From: Nitrospirota bacterium
GTDB taxonomy: Bacteria; Nitrospirota; Thermodesulfovibrionia; Thermodesulfovibrionales; JdFR-85
DNA length: 44,796 bases
Reading direction: 5' to 3'
NCBI GenBank assembly: GCA_015492515.1
Contig: WGEZ01000074.1
Span: 1-44,796 of the forward strand
Every line of letters starts with the position of its first letter. The stretch's first letter is position 1. Both the position numbers and the translations under genes were made by a program. Shown here piece after piece: positions 1,056 through 20,449 of this stretch. Under the pieces are notes generated by a model. It had not been told where the DNA came from. It saw only the letters and a list, made by a program, of their open reading frames with translations, and did no database searches.

Positions 1056-2432
1056 CTATCCCGCGGCTATGATCTCCAGGGCCCTGTCGATCGATTCCCC
1101 GTCCTTTTCGACGATCATCCCTTCGACCGTCCTCTCCACGATCCCTGCCGAGCCCGCCACCTTCAGCCTGTCGAAGAGGACCTCGAACTTTGAGGCGAGT
1201 TCATCCATTATGGCGCCTTTGACATCCCGGGGCAGGTCCCACCATCTCTTCTTCAACGGACCGAACCCCTTCTTCCTCGTCTTGTAGATGAACTGCTCCA
1301 GGGTCTGTCCCTCCTTCCTCTCCTCACCGTAGTGCTCGATCAGGAAGTCGTAAACCTCCTGCCTGAACTCCTCCGGCAGGTGCCTGCTGTCGTAGATGAT
1401 GTTCTGAAACCCCGTGGCCAGATGTACCTCCGAGGTCCCCGTCTCGGGGAACATGTGGAAGGCCTCCTCCGGGAGCGTGGAGGCACCGTGCTGCACACAG
1501 CCCGAGAGGCCGTACTCCCTGCGGGCGATCTCCGAGAGGGTCTTCAGTGTCTGGAAGTCTATGCTCACCTCGGCGAGGCTCCCGTCGGGCAGGACGACCC
1601 CGCCGTGGCTCGTCCCTGTCTGGACGCTCAACTTGCTCAGCCCCTTGCCGCCCCGGAAGACCTCCCTGAACCCGTCCAGGTATGCCCTGAGCTCCTCGGG
1701 GGTGCTGTTCTTTCCACCGATCTCTCCGATCTCTCCACCTATCGACACCTCTATCCCCCGGGGCTGGAGCTCCCTGATGTAGGCGGCAAGTTCGGCGGTC
1801 TTGGAGAAGTTCGGCCTCTGCTGTTCCTTCACCGTCGGCCTCTCCAGGTCGACGAGGGTGGAGGAATCGATGTCTATGTTGTAGAACTCGGCGTCGACGG
1901 CCTCTGCTATGAGGCCCTTCAGATAGTTCGTCTCCGCATCGGGATCGGAGAGGAAGTGCCTCCTGACGAGCTGGAAGTGGTCTCCCTGGATGAAGACAGG
2001 ACCCTCGAAGCCCTCCGTCACCGCCGCCGAGAGTATCACCGCCGAGTACTCGAGGGGCCTCTGCGCCGTGTATCCTATCTCGGACCGGGCGATCTCGAAT
2101 ATGAAGGCCCCCACATCCATCTCGATGGCCTTTCTGAAGACCGTCCTCGCGACATCATAGGTGAGCCCCCTGATATTTATGGCAGGGACGGTGAACCCGG
2201 GATAGCTCCTGCCCATCTCCTCGTAAAGGCCCTGTATGGAGGCGGGCACCGCACCGGAGGCCTTTGCGATCTCCTTTATGAGGATGAAGAGGTCCCTCCT
2301 CCTTTCCTCGGAAGGGTCGAAGACGGCCGAATATACGAGGCCGCCCATGATCGACTTCAGGCCCTCACGGTCCTTCACGGTGACTCTGCCGTCACTTACA
2401 TCGACGTAATCCCTCAACCTGCCGAGTGACAT
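1056..2432 (-). CDS. Class II fructose-bisphosphate aldolase family protein
   Basis: VPAINIR, QGDHFQ, IDIDSS, GEIGEIGG, GTSHGG and QHGAS metal-ligand motifs; aggagg RBS upstream. Exact substrate uncertain. Confidence 0.85.
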   Translation of the reverse strand: MSLGRLRDYVDVSDGRVTVKDREGLKSIMGGLVYSAVFDPSEERRRDLFILIKEIAKASGAVPASIQGLYEEMGRSYPGFTVPAINIRGLTYDVARTVFRKAIEMDVGAFIFEIARSEIGYTAQRPLEYSAVILSAAVTEGFEGPVFIQGDHFQLVRRHFLSDPDAETNYLKGLIAEAVDAEFYNIDIDSSTLVDLERPTVKEQQRPNFSKTAELAAYIRELQPRGIEVSIGGEIGEIGGKNSTPEELRAYLDGFREVFRGGKGLSKLSVQTGTSHGGVVLPDGSLAEVSIDFQTLKTLSEIARREYGLSGCVQHGASTLPEEAFHMFPETGTSEVHLATGFQNIIYDSRHLPEEFRQEVYDFLIEHYGEERKEGQTLEQFIYKTRKKGFGPLKKRWWDLPRDVKGAIMDELASKFEVLFDRLKVAGSAGIVERTVEGMIVEKDGESIDRALEIIAAG

Positions 2433-2511
2433 AGAACCTCCTCCTGGTGGTCGTTGTCTGCTGCCGTCCCTCTATTTTAAGGTTTATCAGCAGGATAATC
2501 AAGGACCGGCA

Positions 2512-2540
2512 TTGACTGTTGTCTCACCATCTGGTAAACT
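2512..2540 (+). promoter_or_regulatory. Putative sigma70 promoter of the amidase/actin/SPOR operon
   Basis: TTGACT (2512-2517), 17-nt spacer ending in TGG, TAAACT (2535-2540), in the divergent intergenic region. Confidence 0.6.
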
Positions 2541-2566
2541 AATGACTGTCCAGAGGCAGGTGATAT

Positions 2567-3634
2567 GTGACTTTTGCAAGACCGTGCAGAAGGGAAGCGA
2601 GGCTGCGGAAGGCGATCCTGAGGGGCATCTACGAGGAAAACCTGAGGATGGCCGGAGGTCGCCGCAGCGAGAAGGGGATCGGAAAGGCCCTCCTGCTCAG
2701 GAAGATCGCGCTCGCCCTCTTCGTCGCCCTTGCCGCCGTATTCGGCAGTTCCAGCCTCCTCGACCTCTCCGTGGTCCAGGAAGACCACATAAACCTCGCC
2801 GGCTCCTTGGTCAACACCCTGACGGACGGCGCAGAGACCACGGATGCTGACGGTGGCATCAACCCCTCCTACTACTCCGCCTTCCTCAGGGACGACGGTA
2901 CGCCCCTGTCCGAGCTCTTCGGTCTCAAGGTGAGGACGATCATCATCGACCCCGGCCACGGGGGCGAGGACCCGGGAGCGGTCGGAAGGCTGGGGACGAA
3001 GGAGAAGGACATAACCCTGGCGATCGCACGGATGCTCAAGGAGAGGCTCTCCAGGTACGACAACTACCAGATCCTCCTGACCAGGGACGACGACAGGACC
3101 CTCTCCCTGAACAGGAGGACCGAGATCGCCAACTCCCTCAAGGCAGACCTCTTCATCTCGATCCATGTGAACTACCTGCCCAACAAGCCGATAAACATCA
3201 TCGAGACCTACTACTTCGGGGCCCATTCCGACGACGCGACACTCAGGCTCGCTGAACAGGAGAACAAGGGCTCCCAGTTCAGCCTCGGCGACTTCAAGGA
3301 GATGATCCGGAAGATCGGCAACACGATGAAGCTGCAGGAGTCGAAGATGCTCGCCCTCTCGATCCAGGAGAGCCTCTTCAGGAACATGGAGGAGCTCCAC
3401 GGCAATGTATTCGACTACGGAATAAAGACCGCTCCCTTCGTGGTCCTCCTCGGGGTGGATGTGCCGAGCGTGTTGACGGAGGTATCGTGCCTGAGCAACC
3501 CGGAGGAGGAGAAGAAGCTGGCCACCGTTGAGTACAGGAGGGAGATCGCCCGCTTCCTCGAGGAGGGGATAGTGGCCTACCTGAATAAACAAAAAGGAGT
3601 AACGGGATATGAAACAGCAAGGCTTCAGCACTGA
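2567..3634 (+). CDS. N-acetylmuramoyl-L-alanine amidase (Amidase_3) with N-terminal membrane anchor
   Basis: IIIDPGHGGEDPGA, TKEKD, LTRDDD, R..IAN..ADLFISIH, APFVVL and PSVLTE Zn/catalytic motifs; hydrophobic IALALFVALAAVFG segment. Start is either GTG 2567 or ATG 2648. Confidence 0.92.
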   Translation: MTFARPCRREARLRKAILRGIYEENLRMAGGRRSEKGIGKALLLRKIALALFVALAAVFGSSSLLDLSVVQEDHINLAGSLVNTLTDGAETTDADGGINPSYYSAFLRDDGTPLSELFGLKVRTIIIDPGHGGEDPGAVGRLGTKEKDITLAIARMLKERLSRYDNYQILLTRDDDRTLSLNRRTEIANSLKADLFISIHVNYLPNKPINIIETYYFGAHSDDATLRLAEQENKGSQFSLGDFKEMIRKIGNTMKLQESKMLALSIQESLFRNMEELHGNVFDYGIKTAPFVVLLGVDVPSVLTEVSCLSNPEEEKKLATVEYRREIARFLEEGIVAYLNKQKGVTGYETARLQH

Positions 3635-4646
3635 CGCCGACGTCCTCTTCGTCGGCATCGACCTCGGGACATCGAGAAGCGCCATCTCGACGAGCAGGGG
3701 GCGGAAGGAGTGGATCGAGAGCTATGTGGGCTGGCCGAAGGACTTCATCGCCCGCAAGGTGCTCGGCAGGCCCGTCCTGTTCGGTGAGGAGGCGCTGAAC
3801 AACAGGCTCTCCCTCGACATCTACAGGCCCCTGGAGAAGGGTGTGATAAAGGAGGGGACCGCGAGGGATGAAGAATCGGTCAGGGAGCTCATCCGTCACC
3901 TCATCGAACTCGCTGCACCTGGTGAGGCACAGAAGATCTACGCCGTGGTAGGCGTGCCGGCGGAGTCGATGAAGATAAACAAGCTCGCCATAAAGAGGGC
4001 GGTATCGGACTACGTGCATTCCCTCATGGTCGTCTCCGAGCCTTTCGCCGTCGCCTACGGGATGGACCTGCTCAACAACGCGCTCGTCATCGATATAGGT
4101 GCAGGCACGGTGGACTTCTGCATAATGCACGGCACCATCCCCACCGAGGACGACCAGAAGACCATCTTCACCGCCGGAGACTACATCGACCAGCAGCTGT
4201 ACGGGTTCCTGGTCGAGAAGCACCCCGAATCGAACCTCAACCTGAACATGGTCAGGAGGTTCAAGGAGAAGTACAGCTTTGTCGGTGACGGGGGCGGCCC
4301 GGTAAGGGTGGAGATACCCGTGGGTGCCAGGCCGGTGGAGCATGACATAACGGAGGATATGAGGCGCGCCTGTGAGGGGATAGTACCGGCCATAGTGGAG
4401 ACCTCCACGGAGATGGTGGCCAAGGTGGACCCTGAATTCCAGGCAGGGATAAGGGAGAACGTGGTCCTCGCCGGAGGGGGCAGCCAGATAAGGGGGATCT
4501 GCGGATACCTCGAGAAGGCATTGAGTGAGTACGGACCTTACAGGGTGCGGGCAGTCGATGATCCGCTCTTCGCCGGGGCGGACGGGGCCCTTGCACTTGC
4601 AAAGGATATGCCGAGGGAATACTGGGAGGAGATGGAAGGGAAATAG
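3609..4646 (+). CDS. mamK: MamK-like bacterial actin
   Basis: Actin-fold motifs GIDLGTS, VVSEPFAVAYG, DIGAGTVD and VLAGGGSQIRG. Segments I recall as MamK-type rather than MreB-type: SRGRK..S.VG.PKD....K.LGRP...G.EA, AV.GVPA, G..P..DDQ.T...AG.YID, F.EKYSFVG, and C-terminal LA.D.P..YW. The symbol denotes the family, not proven magnetosome function. Confidence 0.85.
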   Translation: MKQQGFSTDADVLFVGIDLGTSRSAISTSRGRKEWIESYVGWPKDFIARKVLGRPVLFGEEALNNRLSLDIYRPLEKGVIKEGTARDEESVRELIRHLIELAAPGEAQKIYAVVGVPAESMKINKLAIKRAVSDYVHSLMVVSEPFAVAYGMDLLNNALVIDIGAGTVDFCIMHGTIPTEDDQKTIFTAGDYIDQQLYGFLVEKHPESNLNLNMVRRFKEKYSFVGDGGGPVRVEIPVGARPVEHDITEDMRRACEGIVPAIVETSTEMVAKVDPEFQAGIRENVVLAGGGSQIRGICGYLEKALSEYGPYRVRAVDDPLFAGADGALALAKDMPREYWEEMEGK

Positions 4647-4651
4647 CCCCC

Positions 4652-5818
4652 ATGCGGAACAAGAACATCCTCGTCATCGACGAAGATACGGAGACCCTGA
4701 GGCTCGTAAGCGAGGTCCTCGAGCACGAGGGTCTCGCCGTATTCGTGGTCACCGATTCCGAGAACACCTTACCGATGATCGAGAAGATAGAGCCCGCGCT
4801 GATACTCGTTGAGACGAACCTCTCCGGCATGAGCGGCCTCCGCCTCTGCCAGGATATACACCGTGTGGAGGGGTTCCGAAACATCCCGATCATCCTCCTC
4901 ACCCGGGAGGAGAGGAGATACGACCCGGGATACGCCGCTGACTACGGGGTAGTGGGCTTTATCAGGAAACCAATCGTCGCCGAAGAGCTCCTCTCGAAGG
5001 TGAGGGACGTCCTCACCACCGAGGAGTCGGTGATGGTCGACTTCTCGAGGTTCGAGGATGTCCTCCTCTCAAAGGTGAACGAGATCTTCAGGGAGAGACC
5101 GCCTGAGAGGCCCGGAGGCACCGCTGAAGAGCCGCACGAGGCCGCCGTCACGGAGGATGCACCCGCCGACGACAGCGGGGGAGACGTCGTCGCTGAGGGT
5201 GCACCGGTGGACGCCGCGGTCTCAGGCGCTGAAAGCGCGGAGACGGGGGGCGAAGGGGAGAGGCCCCGTCCGCCGAGGAGGAGGTACAGAAAGAGGAGGA
5301 AGACGAGCCCCCTCCTTGCAGCCCTCGGAGGCGGGGTCCTGCTGCTGCTCATCGTCTCTGCAATCTATCTGAAGACCGGTAAGGAAGGCCCCACCGCTCC
5401 TGATGAGACCGCGGTAATGAAGACGGAGCAGAGCGTTCAGGCCGGGGAGACCCTGGAGCGGGGCGATACAGAGGTGTCGACCATCCAGCCCCAGGAGGAG
5501 GAGACCCTGGAGGAGACGGAGTCTTCCGTCGAAGAGGTCGCGGAGGATGCTCCGCCGCCGGAGGAGCCGGTCACGCCTGAACCGCCTCTCCTCTCCATTC
5601 AGGTGGGGGCGTTCAGGAACCCGGCGAATGCAGAGACCATGAAGCAGAGGCTCGAGTCGAAGGGGTACAGGGCCGGCGTCTATCCCTCCGGGGGGGCAGA
5701 GGAAGGGGTGATCTACAGGGTCCTGATCGGGAGGTTCGACACCAGGGAAGAGGCCCTCAGGAGGCTCAGGGAGATCAAGGAGGCCGAGGGGATCGAGGCG
5801 GTCCTCTTCAGGAGATAG
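4652..5818 (+). CDS. Atypical receiver domain, acidic linker, TM helix and SPOR domain protein
   Basis: N-terminal REC fold (ILVIDED, ILVETNLSGMSG, PIILLT, FIRKP); basic RRRYRKRRK before TM LLAALGGGVLLLLIVSAIYL; C-terminal SPOR motifs IQVGAFRN..NA and YRVLIGRFDTREEA. Confidence 0.88.
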   Translation: MRNKNILVIDEDTETLRLVSEVLEHEGLAVFVVTDSENTLPMIEKIEPALILVETNLSGMSGLRLCQDIHRVEGFRNIPIILLTREERRYDPGYAADYGVVGFIRKPIVAEELLSKVRDVLTTEESVMVDFSRFEDVLLSKVNEIFRERPPERPGGTAEEPHEAAVTEDAPADDSGGDVVAEGAPVDAAVSGAESAETGGEGERPRPPRRRYRKRRKTSPLLAALGGGVLLLLIVSAIYLKTGKEGPTAPDETAVMKTEQSVQAGETLERGDTEVSTIQPQEEETLEETESSVEEVAEDAPPPEEPVTPEPPLLSIQVGAFRNPANAETMKQRLESKGYRAGVYPSGGAEEGVIYRVLIGRFDTREEALRRLREIKEAEGIEAVLFRR

Positions 5819-6005
5819 AGTGGCCGCTTCAGCACACGCCGGTGCCAGGGAATGGCAAAAAAAACCCCCGCTGTTATAAAATAAGTTATCACCGGGAGGC
5901 AAGACTGCCTGTTGTACGCAATACCGCTGTAGTATGCTATCACGAAAGGCCCCTTGACTCAGAGGGAATCGTTTCAGTTTTAATCAGTGTGAGAACGGAG
6001 GTGGT

Positions 6006-6884
6006 ATGAGTTCGGTGACAAAGGCGTTACTTCCCGCTGCAGGGCTTGGAACGAGGTTCCTGCCGGCTACGAAGGCGTCCCCGAAGGAGATGCTGCCCAT
6101 CGTGGACAAGCCGATGATACAGTACGCCGTCGAAGAGGCCGAGTCGTGCGGGATAAACGAGTTCATCGTCATCACGGGAAGGCACAAGAGGACCCTGGAG
6201 GACCACTTCGACACGGTGTACGAGCTTGAGGAGGACCTGAAACAGAAGGGCAAGGAGAAGCTGCTGGAGGAGATCAACAGGCTCAGCCATCTCAACTTCG
6301 CCTACATCCGGCAGGGCAGGCCCCTCGGTCTGGGCCACGCCATACTGAGGGCGAGGCCCTTCGTCAAGGACGAGCCCTTTGCAGTGCTGCTGAGCGACGA
6401 CATAATAGATCCGGACGAGAACCTCCTTGAGCGGATGATCGGTCTGTACGAGGAGTTCCGCTCGCCCATCGTGGCCCTCGAGGAGGTGCCCGCTGAGGAG
6501 ATACACCGCTACGGTGTGATAGCCGGCGCAGAGGAGAGGCCCGATCTGTACAGGTTCACCGACCTCGTGGAGAAGCCGGACCCCGAGGAGGCGCCGAGCA
6601 ACCTTGCGATCATAGGGAGATACATCCTCACTCCGGAACTGTTCGACATCCTGGAGGAGATGGAGCCCGGCAAGGGCGGGGAGTACCAGCTCACCGACGC
6701 CCTGAGGGAGCTGCTCAAGGTGAGGCCCGTCTACGGCGTCGTATTCCGGGGAAAGAGGTACGACGCCGGTGACAAGTTCGGGTTCCTGAAGGCGACGGTG
6801 GACCTGGCACTGAGGAGTTCCACGGTCTCGGAGAAGTTCAGGGAATACCTGGTCAATGTCGCGGCCCGACTGAACAGGAACTGA
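6006..6884 (+). CDS. galU: UTP--glucose-1-phosphate uridylyltransferase
   Basis: PAAGLGTRFLPATKASPKEMLPIVDKP, LGLGHA, VEKP, GEYQLTDA; ggagg RBS. Confidence 0.97.
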   Translation: MSSVTKALLPAAGLGTRFLPATKASPKEMLPIVDKPMIQYAVEEAESCGINEFIVITGRHKRTLEDHFDTVYELEEDLKQKGKEKLLEEINRLSHLNFAYIRQGRPLGLGHAILRARPFVKDEPFAVLLSDDIIDPDENLLERMIGLYEEFRSPIVALEEVPAEEIHRYGVIAGAEERPDLYRFTDLVEKPDPEEAPSNLAIIGRYILTPELFDILEEMEPGKGGEYQLTDALRELLKVRPVYGVVFRGKRYDAGDKFGFLKATVDLALRSSTVSEKFREYLVNVAARLNRN

Positions 6885-6950: not shown

Positions 6951-9329
6951 ATGGCAGACCTCGTAAAGGACGAGAAGGAGATAGAGATACCCGATACCCT
7001 GCCGGTATTGCCGGTGAGGGATATCGTCGTATTCCCCTACATGATCATCCCCCTCTTCGTGGGAAGGGAGATGTCCATAAAGTCCATCGACCACTCCCTC
7101 AACACGAACAGGCTGGTGCTGCTGCTGACGCAGAAGGACCTGAGCATCGAGAACCCCACACCCGAGGACCTGCACAGGGTCGGAACGGTGGGTCTGATTA
7201 TGAGGATACTCAAGCTCCCCGACGGCAGGGTGAAGATCCTCGTGCAGGGTGTCGCAAAGGCGAGGGCTGAGGAGATCAAGGTGAAGGACTACTTCGAGGC
7301 CTCCGTCAGGAAGATCGAGGACAAGAAACCATCGGAGATGACCATCGAGGTGGAGGCGTTGATGCGGACGGTGAAGGAGCACCTCGACAAGGCGGTCTCC
7401 CTTGGCAAGACCATACTACCAGACATCATGGTGGTCATCGAGAACCTGGACGACCCCGGAAGGCTGGCAGACCTCGTGGCCTCGAACCTCGGTCTGAAGA
7501 CCGAGCAGGCACAGGAGATACTCGAGATCGAAGACCCTGTGCAGAGGCTCGCCAGGATCAGCGAGATCCTGAGCAGGGAGATCGAGCTCCTCCTGGTGCA
7601 GCAGAAGATCCAGACCGAGGCGAAGGGAGAGATAGACAAGACCCAGAGGGAGTACTTCCTCAGGGAGCAGCTCAAGGCTATACAGCGGGAGCTCGGCGAG
7701 ATCGACGAGCGGGCGGAGGAGATCAACGAGTTCAGGAAGAAGATAGAGGCCGCCAGGATGCCGGAGAAGGTGAAGAAGGAGGCGGAGAAGCAGCTGAGGA
7801 GGCTGGAGAAGATGCATCCCGACAGCGCCGAGGCAGCGACTGTGAGGACCTACCTGGACTGGCTCGTGGAACTGCCCTGGAGCAGAGCGACGAGGGACCG
7901 CGTTGACATCAAGGCCGCAAAGAAGGTGCTCGACGAAGACCACTACGACCTCGAGAAGGTGAAGGAGAGGATACTGGAGTACCTGAGTGTGAGGAAGCTC
8001 AAGGCCAGGATGAAGGGGCCGATCCTCTGCTTCATCGGACCGCCGGGGGTGGGGAAGACCTCCCTCGGGCGCTCCATTGCAAGGAGCCTCGGCAGGGAGT
8101 TCGTGAGGATGTCCCTCGGCGGCGTGAGGGACGAGGCGGAGATCAGGGGACACAGGCGCACCTACGTGGGCGCGCTGCCGGGACGGATAATACAGGGGAT
8201 CAAGCAGGCCGGCACGAACAACCCCGTCTTCATGCTCGACGAGATCGACAAGATAGGGATGGACTTCAGGGGCGATCCTTCTTCGGCGCTCCTGGAGGTC
8301 CTTGACCCTGAGCAGAACAACGCCTTCGTCGACCACTACCTCGGCGTACCCTTCGACCTCTCGAACGTGATGTTCATAACCACGGGAAACATGGTGGACA
8401 CCATCCCGGGACCCCTCAAGGACAGGATGGAGATCATCTACCTGAGCGGCTACACCGAGGAGGAAAAGCTGGGCATCGCCCGCAACTACCTCCTGCCGAA
8501 GCAGCTCAAGGAGCACGGGATCACGGAAAAGATACTCACCGTAACCGACTCGGGCCTGAAGCTCCTCATCTCCCACTACACGCGCGAGGCGGGGGTGAGA
8601 AACCTCGAGAGGGAGATAGCCAACCTCTGCAGGAAGGTGGCCAAGCAGATCGCCGAGGGTAAGAAGAAGCGGTTCGTCATAACGGCAAGGAACCTCCACC
8701 GATACCTCGGTGCACCGAAGTACCTGCCCGAGGAGGAGATGGAGAAGGACGAGACGGGCGTCTCCACAGGACTCGCCTGGACCGAGTCAGGCGGTGACAT
8801 CATCTACGTCGAGGCGACGACGATGAAGGGAAGGGGCAACCTCACCCTCACCGGCCAGCTCGGAGAGGTGATGAAGGAGTCGGCCCAGGCAGCCCTCAGC
8901 TACATACGCTCGAGGGCCAGACAGCTCGGGATCAAGGTGGACACCTTCTCAAAGACCGACATCCATATCCATGTCCCCGCCGGTGCTATCCCGAAGGACG
9001 GTCCCTCCGCGGGCATCACCATGGCCGTGTCCATCGCCTCCGCCCTTACGGGCAGGCCTGTGGACAAGAGGGTGGCCATGACCGGAGAGGTGACCCTCAG
9101 GGGGAGGGTCCTGCCCGTCGGCGGGTTGAAGGAGAAGATACTCGCCGCCAAAAGGATGGGCATACACAGGATCATCCTGCCGAAGAGGAACGAGAAGGAC
9201 CTCGAGGATATCCCGAAGTACGTCAAGAAGAACGTGGAGTTCATCTTCGTGGACAGGATGGACGAGGTGCTGAAGGTCGCCTTGAAGCCCAAGAGGAAGA
9301 CGGGCCACAGAAAAAACAAGAAAAAATAG
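6951..9329 (+). CDS. lon: ATP-dependent protease La
   Basis: LON N-domain, Walker [23 protein letters not shown], catalytic PKDGPSAG and GGLKEK. Confidence 0.98.
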
Positions 9330-16437: not shown

Positions 16438-16928
16438 CGGCCCTCCACGGGCCCTCCGGAGAGCCTCCGTCTCAGCTCCATGGCCTCCCTCAACAGCCCG
16501 ACCACCCGGCGGTAGGGCCTGCCCGCGTCCTCGGTCATCCGTTCCAGGAGCTGCTCACAGAAGTACCAGGTACACCTGAAGGGCCTCAGCCACCTCGGCC
16601 TCCTGCAGCCCCTGTCGGAGAGGTGTTCGCAGGGTTCGTCGGGGTCCCTCCCGGCAGCGCCCTGGAGAGGGAGCCCGAGGGCGGAGATGTAGCGGAGGTC
16701 GTCTTCCTCGTAGGAGGCGTGCCTCTGCCTGCAGCAGACATCCCTGCATCGGGGGCATACCTCCGAGGTGTAGCCCTCTATGAGGGGGCTGACCTCCTCG
16801 AGGAGCTCCTTCAGCCTGAGGGCGAGGGCCTCCCTCTGGAGGGGCACCGAAGGGGCCGACTCCTCCGTGCCCGATGAAGCCGCATCAGGGGCAGATCCTC
16901 CGGAGGTGATGGGACGGAAAGGCTTCAC
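16434..16928 (-). CDS. Cys-rich protein, YkgJ-like (CxxCxxxCC) putative Fe-S/Zn-binding
   Basis: CPRCRDVCC...PC.HL...GC......RP.RC.WYFC, 8 Cys; stop overlaps the GTG start of the FabF-like gene. Confidence 0.65.
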   Translation of the reverse strand: MKPFRPITSGGSAPDAASSGTEESAPSVPLQREALALRLKELLEEVSPLIEGYTSEVCPRCRDVCCRQRHASYEEDDLRYISALGLPLQGAAGRDPDEPCEHLSDRGCRRPRWLRPFRCTWYFCEQLLERMTEDAGRPYRRVVGLLREAMELRRRLSGGPVEGR

Positions 16929-16968
16929 GGAATATTATATCAATTCCGGGCCTGCGACGGGGAATGCC

Positions 16969-17712
16969 TCACTTCTTCAGCTTCCTCGGTGTGATCCCGT
17001 AGGTCTTCTTGAAGAGGGTGGAGAAGTACTTGGGGCTGTAACCGAGCCTCACCGATACATCGGATATGCTCTGCTCACCCTCCTTGATCAACTGGAGGGC
17101 GTGGGCCATCCTCAACCGCCTGATGTAGCCGTTGCAGGTGTGCCCCGTCAGGGTCTTGAAGTACTTGCAGAGGTAGACCCTGTTCAGGCCCGATACGGAG
17201 CAGATGTCGGATATGGTGATGGGGAGCATATAGTTGTTGTCGATGTAGGTCTTGGCCTTCAACAGCTTCGGGAGCACCTGAGGGGGGATCTTGAGGGTCT
17301 CGAAGATCTCCGTATCCATGCCGATCCTCGAGTACCGCTTCTCGTGTATCGCCTTGATCTTCTCCACCAGTTCGGTGAAGCTGAAGGGCTTCTTTATGTA
17401 ATCCCTCGCCCCGAGCCTGAACGCCCTCAGGCACATGTCCTCCGTACCGTAGGCGGTGATGATGATCACCGGTACGGAAGGAGCCCTCTCCTTGATGTGT
17501 TTCAGCACCTCGAGGCCGCTCATGTCCGGCAGTATGATGTCGAGGACGACCACCTCCGTATCCTGGGAGATGTGCTCCAGCGCCTCGGCGCCGCTGGTGA
17601 CATGGATCACCTCGGGCGCGCCCTTGCCGAGTTTGAGGCAGAGAAGCTCCTTGAGGCACTCCCCCTGCTCCTTCTCGTCTTCAACTATCAGGATCTTCTT
17701 CCTTTTTTTCAC
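16969..17712 (-). CDS. Response regulator with AraC-type HTH
   Basis: REC motifs ILIVEDE, VLDIILP, IITAY, YIKKP; C-terminal YLCKYFK..TG......I...R...A..L.....S...V...LGY...YFS.LFKK.YG.TP. Confidence 0.92.
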   Translation of the reverse strand: MKKRKKILIVEDEKEQGECLKELLCLKLGKGAPEVIHVTSGAEALEHISQDTEVVVLDIILPDMSGLEVLKHIKERAPSVPVIIITAYGTEDMCLRAFRLGARDYIKKPFSFTELVEKIKAIHEKRYSRIGMDTEIFETLKIPPQVLPKLLKAKTYIDNNYMLPITISDICSVSGLNRVYLCKYFKTLTGHTCNGYIRRLRMAHALQLIKEGEQSISDVSVRLGYSPKYFSTLFKKTYGITPRKLKK

Positions 17713-17920
17713 CCTTTGGCCCTGAAAAGCTTTCTGGTGTCTTATCAGTTTATCATTACGGGGGGGAAAAATCTACCAACAAACGTTAACAATCCGGTAC
17801 GATATCGTTTAATTTTGTAGGCACTTCAAGTACAAGATGGACCCCGAGGACCCACGTTATTGCAACGACCGCTCCCTTTCGGTTATATTAATTGATTACA
17901 TGGCCTTCGTCTTCACGGGC

Positions 17921-20449
17921 ATGCAGGAATTCATTGTAATAAAGGGTGCCAGAGAACACAACCTGAAGAACCTGAACCTCAAGATCCCGCGGGAGCGGAT
18001 AATCGTCGTCACCGGCCCCTCGGGCTCCGGCAAATCATCGCTCGCCATAGACACCATATATGCGGAAGGGCAGCGCCGCTACGTCCAGAGCCTCTCCTCC
18101 TATGCACGGCAGTTCATCGGAGAGCTGCAGAAGCCCGATGTGGACTACATCGAGGGGCTGTCCCCCTCTGTAGCGATCGAGCAGAAGACGGTCTCCAGGT
18201 CACCGAGGTCCACCCTGGGGACGATAACCGAGGTCTACGACTATATGAGGGTGCTCTACACCAGGGTGGGCAGGGCCTTCTGTTACCGCTGCGGCAGGCC
18301 GATCACCACACAGGAGACGGAGAATATACTGCAGTCCGTTCTCCAGATGCCCGCGGGCACCAGGCTCCAGATCCTCTCACCGGTGGTCCAGGAGCGGAAG
18401 GGCGAGTACAGGAAGGAGCTCCAGCAGATGAGGCGGGAGGGGTTCGTGCGCGCCAGGATCGACGGCAGGATGGTGGACCTCACCAAGGACATCACGCTGA
18501 AGAAACAGAAGCGGCATACCATAGAGATCGTGATCGACAGGTTGATAGCGAAACCCGGCATGGAGAGACAGCTGAGGGCCGCGATAGAGAACGCCCTCAT
18601 CCACTCCGACACGGTGGTGATCAACCTCGTGGACCAGGGCAGGGACATCCTCTTCAGCAAGACCCTCTCCTGCACGAGCTGCAGGATAAGCTACCCGGAG
18701 ATCACCCCCATGTTCTTCTCCTTCAACAGCAGGATCGGTGCCTGCCCCTCCTGTCAGGGACTGGGCTACATCAACCTCACGGAAGAGACGACCGAGTTCG
18801 ACGAGCTGGTGCCCTGCAGGCGGTGCGGGGGACTGAGGCTGAGGGCCGAGGCCCTGGGCATCAGGCTCCAGGGCCTCAACATCGGCGAGTTCTCGAGGCT
18901 CTCCGTACGGAGGTCCCTCGAGTTCATAGACTCCCTCACCTTCACCGAGAGGGAAGAGCTGATCTCCAGACGGATCATCAAGGAGGTGAGGGACAGGCTC
19001 CGGTTCCTCCAGAGGGTGGGGCTCGACTACCTCTCCCTGGACAGGCCTGCTGCAACGCTCTCCGGCGGTGAGGCGCAGAGGGTGAGGCTGGCGACCCAGC
19101 TCGGTTCCTCCCTCACGGGCGTGCTCTATGTGCTGGACGAGCCGAGCATCGGGCTCCATCCGAGAGACTGCAGGCGACTCCTCGAGACCCTCTCGGAGAT
19201 CAGGGACTCTGCAAACACGGTGATAGTGGTGGAACACGACGAGGAGACCATCAGGTGGGCCGATCACGTGATCGATCTCGGTCCAGGAGGCGGCACCTCC
19301 GGCGGATGGGTTGTGGCAGAGGGTAGACCCGAGGAGGTGGAGAAGGTCGAATCATCACCGACGGGACGGTTCCTCTCGGGAAGGAGGAGTATCCCCCTGC
19401 CGGCCTTCAGGCGGAGACCGAAGGGATGGATCGAGATAACCGGTGCATCGGAGCATAACCTGAAGGATCTGGACGTGATGATCCCCCTCGGCCTATTCGT
19501 CTGCATCACGGGGGTGTCGGGCTCCGGAAAGAGCACCCTTGTGCTGGACATACTCTACAGGGCGCTCCTCAGGGCGATCCACGGCAAGAGGGTGAGGCCT
19601 GGAAGGTTCAGGACGATAAAGGGTACGGAGCAGCTGTCACGGGTCATCTCCATAGAGCAGAGGCCCCTCGGACGGACGCCGAGGTCGAACCCGGCAACCT
19701 ACACGGGCATATTCACCCATGTGAGAAACCTCTTCTCCAGGGTCCCGGACGCCAGGGTGAGGGGGTACACGGCCTCAAGGTTCAGCTTCAACGTCCCCGG
19801 CGGCAGGTGTGAGAGCTGCAAGGGAGCGGGCTTCAAGAAGGTGGAGATGCATTTCCTCCCCGACGTCTACGTCCCCTGCGACGAGTGCAAGGGGATGAGA
19901 TACAACAGAGAGACCCTCGAGATCAGGTTCAAGGGGAAGAACATCTCGGAGGTCCTGGAGATGACCATAACAGAGGCCCGTCAGTTCTTCTCCCACATCC
20001 CCGCCCTGAAAGAGAGGCTACAGGTGCTCTCCGACGTGGGGCTCGGCTACATCAAGCTCGGACAGTCCGCAACCACCCTCTCCGGCGGTGAGGCGCAGAG
20101 GGTGAGGCTTGCCAGGGAGCTCGGCAAGAGGGCCAGAGGCTCAAGCCTTTACATCCTCGACGAGCCGACAACAGGCCTGCATTTCGTGGACATCGAGCGC
20201 CTCCTCGGGGTGATACAGGGGCTGGTTGAACGTGAAAACACCGTGGTGGTGATCGAGCACAACCTCGACATCGTGAAGTGCGCCGACTATGTGATAGACC
20301 TCGGACCCGAGGGCGGAGAGGAGGGCGGCTACATCGTGGCGGCTGGTACGCCTGAAGAGGTATCGCTCAACGAGGGGTCTTACACAGGCAGGTTCCTGAG
20401 GAACAAACTACAGGAGCACCGGGCGAGAGGGACCCGGGTGACGGCGTGA
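17921..20449 (+). CDS. uvrA: Excinuclease ABC subunit A (short form, about 842 aa)
   Basis: GAREHNLKN, two Walker A motifs (GPSGSGKSS, GVSGSGKST), two TLSGGEAQR signatures, C-terminal Zn finger GRCESCKG...CDECKG. Confidence 0.96.
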   Translation: MQEFIVIKGAREHNLKNLNLKIPRERIIVVTGPSGSGKSSLAIDTIYAEGQRRYVQSLSSYARQFIGELQKPDVDYIEGLSPSVAIEQKTVSRSPRSTLGTITEVYDYMRVLYTRVGRAFCYRCGRPITTQETENILQSVLQMPAGTRLQILSPVVQERKGEYRKELQQMRREGFVRARIDGRMVDLTKDITLKKQKRHTIEIVIDRLIAKPGMERQLRAAIENALIHSDTVVINLVDQGRDILFSKTLSCTSCRISYPEITPMFFSFNSRIGACPSCQGLGYINLTEETTEFDELVPCRRCGGLRLRAEALGIRLQGLNIGEFSRLSVRRSLEFIDSLTFTEREELISRRIIKEVRDRLRFLQRVGLDYLSLDRPAATLSGGEAQRVRLATQLGSSLTGVLYVLDEPSIGLHPRDCRRLLETLSEIRDSANTVIVVEHDEETIRWADHVIDLGPGGGTSGGWVVAEGRPEEVEKVESSPTGRFLSGRRSIPLPAFRRRPKGWIEITGASEHNLKDLDVMIPLGLFVCITGVSGSGKSTLVLDILYRALLRAIHGKRVRPGRFRTIKGTEQLSRVISIEQRPLGRTPRSNPATYTGIFTHVRNLFSRVPDARVRGYTASRFSFNVPGGRCESCKGAGFKKVEMHFLPDVYVPCDECKGMRYNRETLEIRFKGKNISEVLEMTITEARQFFSHIPALKERLQVLSDVGLGYIKLGQSATTLSGGEAQRVRLARELGKRARGSSLYILDEPTTGLHFVDIERLLGVIQGLVERENTVVVIEHNLDIVKCADYVIDLGPEGGEEGGYIVAAGTPEEVSLNEGSYTGRFLRNKLQEHRARGTRVTA

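Follow-up and report, generated by a model that had tools for sequence, protein, structure and literature searches.

A MamK-family actin gene and a membrane-amidase gene form a conserved pair in non-magnetic bacteria

The 44,796-nucleotide (nt) contig WGEZ01000074.1 of a Nitrospirota bacterium (assembly GCA_015492515.1), analysed here at its full length and called the window, carries a three-gene cassette at positions 2512-5818. Gene order on the + strand is an Amidase_3-family amidase gene (2567-3634), a MamK-family actin gene (3609-4646) and a gene for a receiver-transmembrane-SPOR (REC-TM-SPOR) protein (4652-5818). An earlier note on this DNA described three same-strand genes with a 26-nt overlap, a 5-nt gap and housekeeping flanks, and all of its coordinates are correct; it read the three genes as one cytoskeleton-guided unit for cell-wall remodelling. 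Comparison across genomes reveals that what is conserved as a unit is the pair of amidase and actin, and not all three genes. The features of the cassette are as follows.

2512-2540, + strand: candidate sigma-70-like promoter, TTGACT, 17 nt, TAAACT, with TG before the second hexamer (9/12 matches)
2567-3634, + strand: gene for a bitopic N-acetylmuramoyl-L-alanine amidase, 355 amino acids (aa), GTG start
2606-2659, + strand: cytoplasmic tail motif of the amidase, predicted actin-binding helix, residues 14-31, RKAILRGIYEENLRMAGG
2699-2755, + strand: transmembrane (TM) anchor of the amidase, about residues 45-63, preceded by basic residues
2939-3571, + strand: Amidase_3 catalytic domain with an AmiA/B/C-type insertion, in which LAEQEN is residues 228-233
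3609-3634, + strand: overlap of the amidase stop with the actin start, exactly 26 nt
3609-4646, + strand: gene for a MamK-family actin-like ATPase of the amidase-linked clade, 345 aa
4647-4651, + strand: gap between the actin gene and the third gene, exactly 5 nt
4652-5818, + strand: pseudo-receiver-TM-SPOR gene, 388 aa
4667-5005, + strand: receiver-fold domain, residues 6-118, PF00072 Response_reg at 69.8 bits (cut-off 30.2)
4811-4813, + strand: Glu54, in place of Asp at the phospho-acceptor position
5312-5380, + strand: TM segment of the third protein, 19-mer at residues 221-239, Kyte-Doolittle hydropathy (KD) 2.4
5594-5806, + strand: SPOR domain PF05036, residues 315-385, 61.1 bits (cut-off 21); 64.5 bits in the genome search

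The adjacency of amidase and actin goes far beyond chance. In a scan with one genome per species, in which the best 80 of 311 relatives were examined, the amidase gene lies directly upstream of the actin gene in 78/80 loci, and the two misses are contig ends, with 91 and 35 nt upstream. The titles of the 80 loci name Nitrospirota/Thermodesulfovibrionales, Desulfobulbaceae, other Thermodesulfobacteriota, Aminicenantes, Rhodocyclaceae and Gammaproteobacteria. The amidase stop and the actin start overlap in 75/77 loci, by 4-53 nt with a mode of 32, and the other two loci have a 19-nt gap. Actins above the MamK cut-off occur in 18 of 61 sampled genomes of the window's order; thirteen of these actins, 62-71% identical to the window's, have the amidase directly upstream (13/13). 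In addition, a sister actin group was sampled on metagenome contigs (80 of 205 relatives examined, median identity to the window's actin 51%), and the amidase is upstream in 54/54 of its loci with at least 900 nt upstream. No other neighbour is conserved in the 80 loci or, by clustering of open reading frames (ORFs), in the sister-clade loci, and none is conserved in the loci without a REC-TM-SPOR gene either. The earlier idea of a conserved cytoskeleton and cell-wall module is thus borne out for these two genes. The pair is a real, conserved and widespread module in non-magnetic bacteria, and is probably a two-gene operon with translational coupling. Delta proteobacterium NaphS2 (L087), which has a record without the label of a metagenome-assembled genome, carries the pair, and Thermodesulfobacteriota bacterium B35 (L115) may be a second isolate that does so.

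The adjacency that the earlier note expected in relatives holds for the amidase and the actin, but not for the REC-TM-SPOR gene, which adjoins the actin gene (within about 125 nt) in 34/80 loci. By label, these are 32/47 Nitrospirota, 1/18 Thermodesulfobacteriota, 1/7 unplaced and 0/8 other loci; the adjacency is found in 9/13 order relatives and in 0/48 sister-clade loci. The four order relatives without it have a full-length REC-TM-SPOR homologue elsewhere in the genome, and all 14 pair-holding genomes among the 61 of the order have such a gene somewhere. The unlinked gene adjoins a Mur-ligase-family gene in two order relatives (L162:5423-6763, L166:2634-3983), and in L163 it is followed directly by a gene for a hydrolase with SPOR and NlpC/P60 domains (L163:3244-4035 and L163:4038-5693, both on the - strand). 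Full-length homologues also occur in at least six order relatives without the pair (G056, G039, G024, G049, G026 and G037). No homologue at E <= 1e-25 was found in the 22 other genomes of the window's family, and no full-length match in 5/5 pair-holding genomes of other phyla. The REC-TM-SPOR protein is therefore an envelope protein of the whole lineage, and its gene has joined the operon in many cases but not in all.

The first gene encodes a protein that scores 154.5 bits against Pfam Amidase_3 (PF01520; gathering cut-off 27). GTG 2567 was taken as its start in preference to ATG 2648, since the coding sequence for the conserved N-terminal motif already begins ahead of that ATG; most relatives have a Met 16 residues ahead of the motif. 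We aligned the window's amidase with 46 of the 78 locus amidases (n = 47). Residues H131, E146, H200 and E305, the positions expected for metal binding and catalysis, are invariant in this alignment. The protein aligns over the whole domain, including residues 219-290, to AmiA 8c2o, AmiB 3ne8 and AmiC 4bin; 5/7 of the shorter structure matches, which are mostly CwlV-type and CwlD-type chains, stop at about residues 216-227 (CwlV 1jwq, 5emi, 4rn7, 5j72 and 7rag). The insertion shared with AmiA/B/C presumably holds their regulatory (auto-inhibitory) helix, and its LAEQEN is conserved among the 47 amidases. An AlphaFold2 model built from the same 47 rows (mean predicted local distance difference test score, pLDDT, 76.4) has helices at residues 7-28 and 38-63 and a confident catalytic domain. 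The periplasmic linker, with pLDDT below 50 over most of residues 64-117, is predicted to be disordered and is poorly conserved.

Although the protein has the Amidase_3 domain and the regulatory-helix insertion in common with AmiA, AmiB and AmiC, it differs from them in having no AMIN domain detectable by Pfam, an uncleaved-looking N-terminal TM anchor and a conserved cytoplasmic tail. Its NCBIfam equivalog scores are far below the cut-offs for all three (AmiA 121.1 against 400 bits, AmiC 115.9 against 700, AmiB 95 against 532). Since the same genome also encodes an AMIN+Amidase_3 (AmiC-type) protein and a third Amidase_3 gene, the amidase of the pair is an extra, specialised accessory enzyme, with its targeting module shifted to the cytoplasmic side. 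Other parts of the genome contain six M23 genes and, spread over four other contigs, five more SPOR matches.

The N-terminal consensus of the 47 amidases is R..ILRGVYEENLRI.GK and stands upstream of the sole hydrophobic stretch, whose best 19-mer in the window's protein starts at residue 41 (KD 2.3). Within the motif N25 is invariant, and I17, L18, G20, Y22 and L26 are conserved at 90% or more. In a looser form, the motif occurs in 69/72 readable N-termini of the main clade and, as LLR.A[IV]..NV, in 45/52 of the sister clade, compared with 15/8420 control ORFs. Among the motif-bearing amidases, the motif lies N-terminal of the hydrophobic segment in 66 of the main clade and 37 of the sister clade. 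Searched with the tail profile, the window's own genome yields the amidase as the sole match (E 3.4e-12; next best E 4), and no second protein with the motif was found by this profile in that genome or in four magnetosome loci of the order.

The second gene encodes an actin that passes the NCBIfam MamK model NF040964 with 430.3 bits (cut-off 400), over model positions 1-330 of 335; in the genome search it scores 430.2 bits. It is not a member of the BeeR family (NF053558, 207 bits, cut-off 530), and MreB models score at most 70 bits. The alignment to MamK 5jyg is gapless over residues 11-342 (319.9 bits). Residues G16-S22, D162-T167 and G289-S292, presumably the phosphate-1, phosphate-2 and adenosine motifs, are invariant in 14 actin sequences. 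Compared with MamK (5jyg, 5ljv), the protein thus belongs to the same family, aligns without gaps and keeps the nucleotide-binding motifs, but lies outside any magnetosome cluster, falls in a separate clade and has an amidase as its conserved partner.

Four of the 18 order actins above the MamK cut-off belong to one family and are encoded, without an amidase, inside real magnetosome clusters, in which MamM reaches 388.7 bits (cut-off 350) and MamB-, MamP- and MamQ-like neighbours stay below their cut-offs. The window's actin is 45-48% identical to these cluster-borne MamKs. Queries from the four clusters found no cluster-specific homologue in the window's own genome, which is rated 100% complete in 148 contigs; they matched this actin, a few non-cluster flank genes, one generic cation diffusion facilitator (CDF) locus at 24-30% identity, and one protein with a weak match to a MamQ-like protein.

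A quickly built tree of 170 rows (LG+G4, MreB outgroup) comprises 81 amidase-linked actins, 4 magnetosome-cluster actins and 84 representatives, each at least 320 aa long, that were drawn from a search of 1.84 billion proteins. All 81 amidase-linked actins fall in one clade together with three context-less representatives (Shimodaira-Hasegawa-like approximate likelihood-ratio test, SH-aLRT, 95). This clade is sister (100) to the P0002 group and stands apart from the magnetosome-cluster clade (99). With many long branches and unsettled deep forks in the tree, we make no claim as to which use of the actin is older.

Several further observations concern this actin family. Two of the order's magnetosome clusters hold a second, divergent actin-like gene (L034:8688-9935 and L036:7942-9162, both on the - strand) for a protein of 406-415 aa, about 0.9-1.6 kb from mamK; the L034 copy scores 48.4 bits against the MamK model. 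A group of long MamK-family proteins of 523-1232 aa (P0005, P0007, P0012-P0015, P0019, P0021, P0023, P0025, P0028, P0030, P0031 and P0035) carries the actin domain at the C terminus behind a long N-terminal extension, in which no Pfam domain was found in the three that were scanned; these proteins form one clade (SH-aLRT 99). The actins of L065, L068, L073, L079 and L085, titled Thermodesulfobacteriota, Syntrophaceae or delta proteobacterium, nest deep among Nitrospirota actins, and L068 and L079 carry the REC-TM-SPOR gene; gene transfer or mis-binned contigs could account for the nesting.

We predicted the complex of the actin and amidase residues 1-46, from alignments of 14 and 47 rows respectively, in three runs; this is one of the multimer predictions that the earlier note had recommended. 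The interface score ipSAE is 0.80, 0.79 and 0.80, and 0.00 in each of three controls, two with an unrelated partner and one in which an unrelated protein replaced the actin. In a calibration that is approximate for custom alignments, that ipSAE mark was reached by 58/80 solved complexes and by 2/110 mismatched pairs. The runs share at least 76% of their contacts. On the amidase side the predicted interface is formed by tail residues 10-30, which are the conserved motif; on the actin side it is formed by residues 125-129, 139-142, 150-156 and 175-177 and the C-terminal helix 330-345. From one amidase-linked clade to the other, the tightest predicted contact changes on both sides, with tail Y22 replaced by I/V and actin M334/Y338 by A/D. 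This joint switch, a single evolutionary contrast, would fit co-evolution of the two surfaces.

The third protein consists of a cytoplasmic domain, an acidic linker, a basic patch (RPRPPRRRYRKRRK) directly before the TM segment at residues 221-239, a Pro/Glu-rich linker and the SPOR domain. The receiver domain that had been named in it is a receiver by fold, but Glu54 occupies the phospho-acceptor position. In 32 homologues this column holds D once, E twice (including the window), N 15 times, K five times, R four times, S four times and Q once, whereas D occupies the aligned position in a canonical receiver from this genome. Because the phospho-acceptor Asp is absent in 31/32, we call the domain a pseudo-receiver. 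A further receiver match, on contig C20 of the same genome, was rejected as a relative, being an ordinary receiver with Asp and without a TM segment or a SPOR domain.

The order of parts in this protein resembles that of FtsN in the FtsN/FtsA/amidase loop of E. coli. FtsN is bitopic; its cytoplasmic end meets an actin homologue, and its SPOR domain binds the denuded glycan that amidases make. The third protein differs from it in that its cytoplasmic part is a pseudo-receiver of 120 residues rather than a short peptide. Against the FtsN model TIGR02223 it scores 38.5 bits (cut-off 107.65), and only residues 315-379, the SPOR part, match. Two variants of the gene were seen in other genomes: tandem paralogues in an order relative without the pair (L165:4060-5391 and 5400-6578, + strand), and a REC-TM protein that stops before the SPOR domain (L072:7067-8125), which may be a frameshift or a real truncation.

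We consider it probable that an actin filament, through the N-terminal helix of the amidase, sets where this accessory enzyme acts, and that the SPOR protein, where present, would bind the product. Specifically, the first gene would encode a type-II (N-in) membrane amidase with a cytoplasmic helix of about 30 residues that contains ILRGVYEENLRI, followed by the TM segment, the linker and the Amidase_3 domain. The helix would bind a hydrophobic groove of the actin made up of residues 125-156 and 175-177 and the C-terminal helix 330-345, and the cytoplasmic filament would decide the envelope site at which the extra amidase strips stem peptides. The cytoskeletal tether would take the place of the periplasmic AMIN targeting domain of AmiC. 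SPOR domains bind denuded glycan produced by amidases; in Nitrospirota, the pseudo-receiver-TM-SPOR protein would bind the denuded glycan left by this amidase and could mark or reinforce the site. Judged by its missing Asp, the cytoplasmic pseudo-receiver is probably a protein-binding module and not a phosphorylation switch. We infer binding and positioning, together with a cellular role that may lie in division-site, pole or shape-related remodelling.

Several points weigh against this mechanism. The pair is dispensable: it is lacking from all 22 other genomes in the window's family, in which no actin exceeds the MamK cut-off. The conservation counts come from only the best 80 of 311 and 80 of 205 relatives. 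The complex score is the model's confidence only, and the pLDDT of the partner in the complex is only about 60. The docking groove is conserved in magnetosome MamKs too, with 66% identity at the interface compared with 47.5% overall, and by this comparison may be a general MamK partner or filament site. As modelled, binding of the tail could cap the actin or compete with its polymerisation instead of decorating filaments. ParR uses a comparable groove at the ends of ParM filaments, and by analogy the amidase could sit at filament ends and not along the filament. With the linker predicted to be disordered, positioning would be loose and allosteric control through the linker is unlikely. Finally, the kept AmiA/B/C-type insertion suggests that a periplasmic activator, not encoded here, may be needed.

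The model of the earlier note, in which the amidase writes denuded glycan and the bitopic SPOR protein reads the mark and tethers or positions the filament through its receiver domain, now seems unlikely. The position of the REC-TM-SPOR gene behind the actin gene in 34/80 loci, 32/47 of the Nitrospirota and 9/13 order relatives agrees with it, as do the presence of the gene somewhere in all 14 pair-holding order genomes and the lost phospho-Asp, which fits a binding module. However, the adjacency drops to 0/48 in the sister clade and 1/18 in Thermodesulfobacteriota, no full-length homologue was found in 5/5 pair-holding genomes of other phyla, at least six order relatives have one without the pair, and both the conserved cytoplasmic motif and the modelled docking that would make a tether belong to the amidase. 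We hold it about equally improbable that the logic runs in reverse, with the amidase serving mainly as a wall-attached anchor or nucleator, the filament positioning a cytoplasmic cargo such as an inclusion or organelle, and cleavage being secondary. The predicted docking groove lies near the C-terminal helix, and ParR holds ParM ends by a similar site; yet no cargo-adaptor gene is conserved beside the pair, the tail motif is on no other protein of the genome, and the invariance of the expected metal and catalytic positions in 47 amidases argues for a working enzyme. In favour of such a cargo role, MamK-family actins organise cargo in magnetotactic bacteria, according to the available part of one article (PMC11929497).

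Fainter still is the chance that the two proteins are co-transcribed neighbours that make no contact, with the tail binding another partner (divisome, MreB or FtsA, membrane) and the actin serving an unrelated role. It is compatible with the fact that the complex score is a prediction, and with the conservation of the groove across MamKs whether or not an amidase partner is present, but it sits poorly with the strict co-occurrence and overlap across several phyla and two clades, whose actins are about 51% identical, and with complex controls of 0.00. An origin of the locus as the remnant of a degraded magnetosome gene cluster is the least credible of all. While the actin does pass the NCBIfam MamK cut-off, and the same order has a magnetotactic family with real clusters (MamM 388.7 bits, cut-off 350), in the genome, rated 100% complete, no cluster-specific neighbour homologue was found beyond the one generic CDF locus and the weak MamQ-like match, the amidase-linked actins are a separate clade, and the pair is kept in lineages with no mam genes nearby. 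On the lack of cluster-specific homologues in the own genome and the separate actin clade, we discarded it.

An extended form of the preferred tether, to which we give little credence, makes the filament cytomotive, with the amidase riding it or tracking its end. Polymerisation or treadmilling would drag the tethered hydrolase through the membrane and draw defined lines or patches of denuded glycan; the Nitrospirota pseudo-receiver-SPOR protein would detect this glycan mark and act back on the filament. Together they would form a self-organising memory of position that spans the envelope and needs neither MreB nor FtsZ. Wall remodelling by an actin system would then be the older use, and magnetosome MamK either branched off from it later or is its sister.

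As for transcription signals, the single sigma-70-like promoter proposed for the cassette is present as a site at 2512-2540, but the evidence that it acts as a promoter is weak, since the region 2300-6100 has 2 promoter-like sites against 0.8 +/- 0.8 in shuffles. No terminator-like site was found on the + strand in 2300-6100, and so none after any of the three genes, and the fold of 5800-6010 is no better than that of shuffles (z 0.19). The G+C content ranges from 0.57 to 0.66 within the cassette and from 0.58 to 0.65 within its flanks; recent transfer of the cassette was considered and set aside, as base composition shows no sign of one. The flanking housekeeping genes are as follows.

193-1044: lipoyl synthase
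1056-2432, - strand: class-II-aldolase-like gene
6006-6884: GalU-like nucleotidyl transferase
6951-9329: 792-aa ORF, Lon-like as judged from its translation

The aldolase-like protein has 458 aa and a weak class-II fructose-bisphosphate-aldolase match (45.9 bits), and is kept at 52-78% identity in 20/22 family relatives; in the six family relatives examined, none of the window's other genes adjoin its gene. Farther along the window, an ORF at 16780-17820 (+ strand, 346 aa), which matches no Pfam family at E <= 1e-4, lies directly upstream of a gene for an 870-aa UvrA-like ABC ATPase (17837-20449).

Bacterial actins are known for roles in wall synthesis (MreB), division (FtsA), plasmids (ParM) and magnetosomes (MamK), and we know of no direct, genetically hard-wired tether of an actin filament to a peptidoglycan hydrolase. 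Among the nearest parallels are ParR-ParM and RodZ-MreB, in which the partner contributes a short helix or small domain that binds a bacterial actin and so links it to a cargo or to machinery of the envelope; here, by comparison, the partner is a periplasmic hydrolase, the genes overlap and the site is predicted. MamK relatives are used outside magnetosomes in other bacteria as well. The available parts of two articles describe MamK-related actins of non-magnetotactic bacteria, namely BeeR of Verrucomicrobiota (PMC11929497) and Bbp ('big bacteria protein'; PMC10580974). The present actin differs from BeeR in scoring far below the BeeR cut-off (207 against 530 bits), and from Bbp in its neighbour, an amidase gene, where the Bbp cluster has genes for a hypothetical protein and a Kelch-domain protein (PMC10580974). 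The word amidase has 0 occurrences in these parts of the two articles. In a literature search without most subscription journals and supplements, no paper was found that links MamK with an amidase or peptidoglycan, nor any description of the gene trio, in line with the earlier note. What is new here is thus a MamK-family actin with a hard-wired amidase client, apparently undescribed.

These findings bear on how MamK homologues are read in genome data. A metagenome survey, in the part of the article available, lists 2798 MamK-like sequences, 227 of them on scaffolds with other Mam genes, and treats the non-cluster MamK homologues as sequences to avoid (PMC7449369). Magnetotactic bacteria cannot safely be recognised by a mamK gene alone. 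Made up of two genes and a peptide of about 25 residues, the module is small, and with the pair present in NaphS2 it should be directly testable. If the predicted contact is true, it would be a new way of choosing the site at which the wall is cut, and would give a function to the many non-magnetosome 'MamK' genes that metagenome surveys have set aside.

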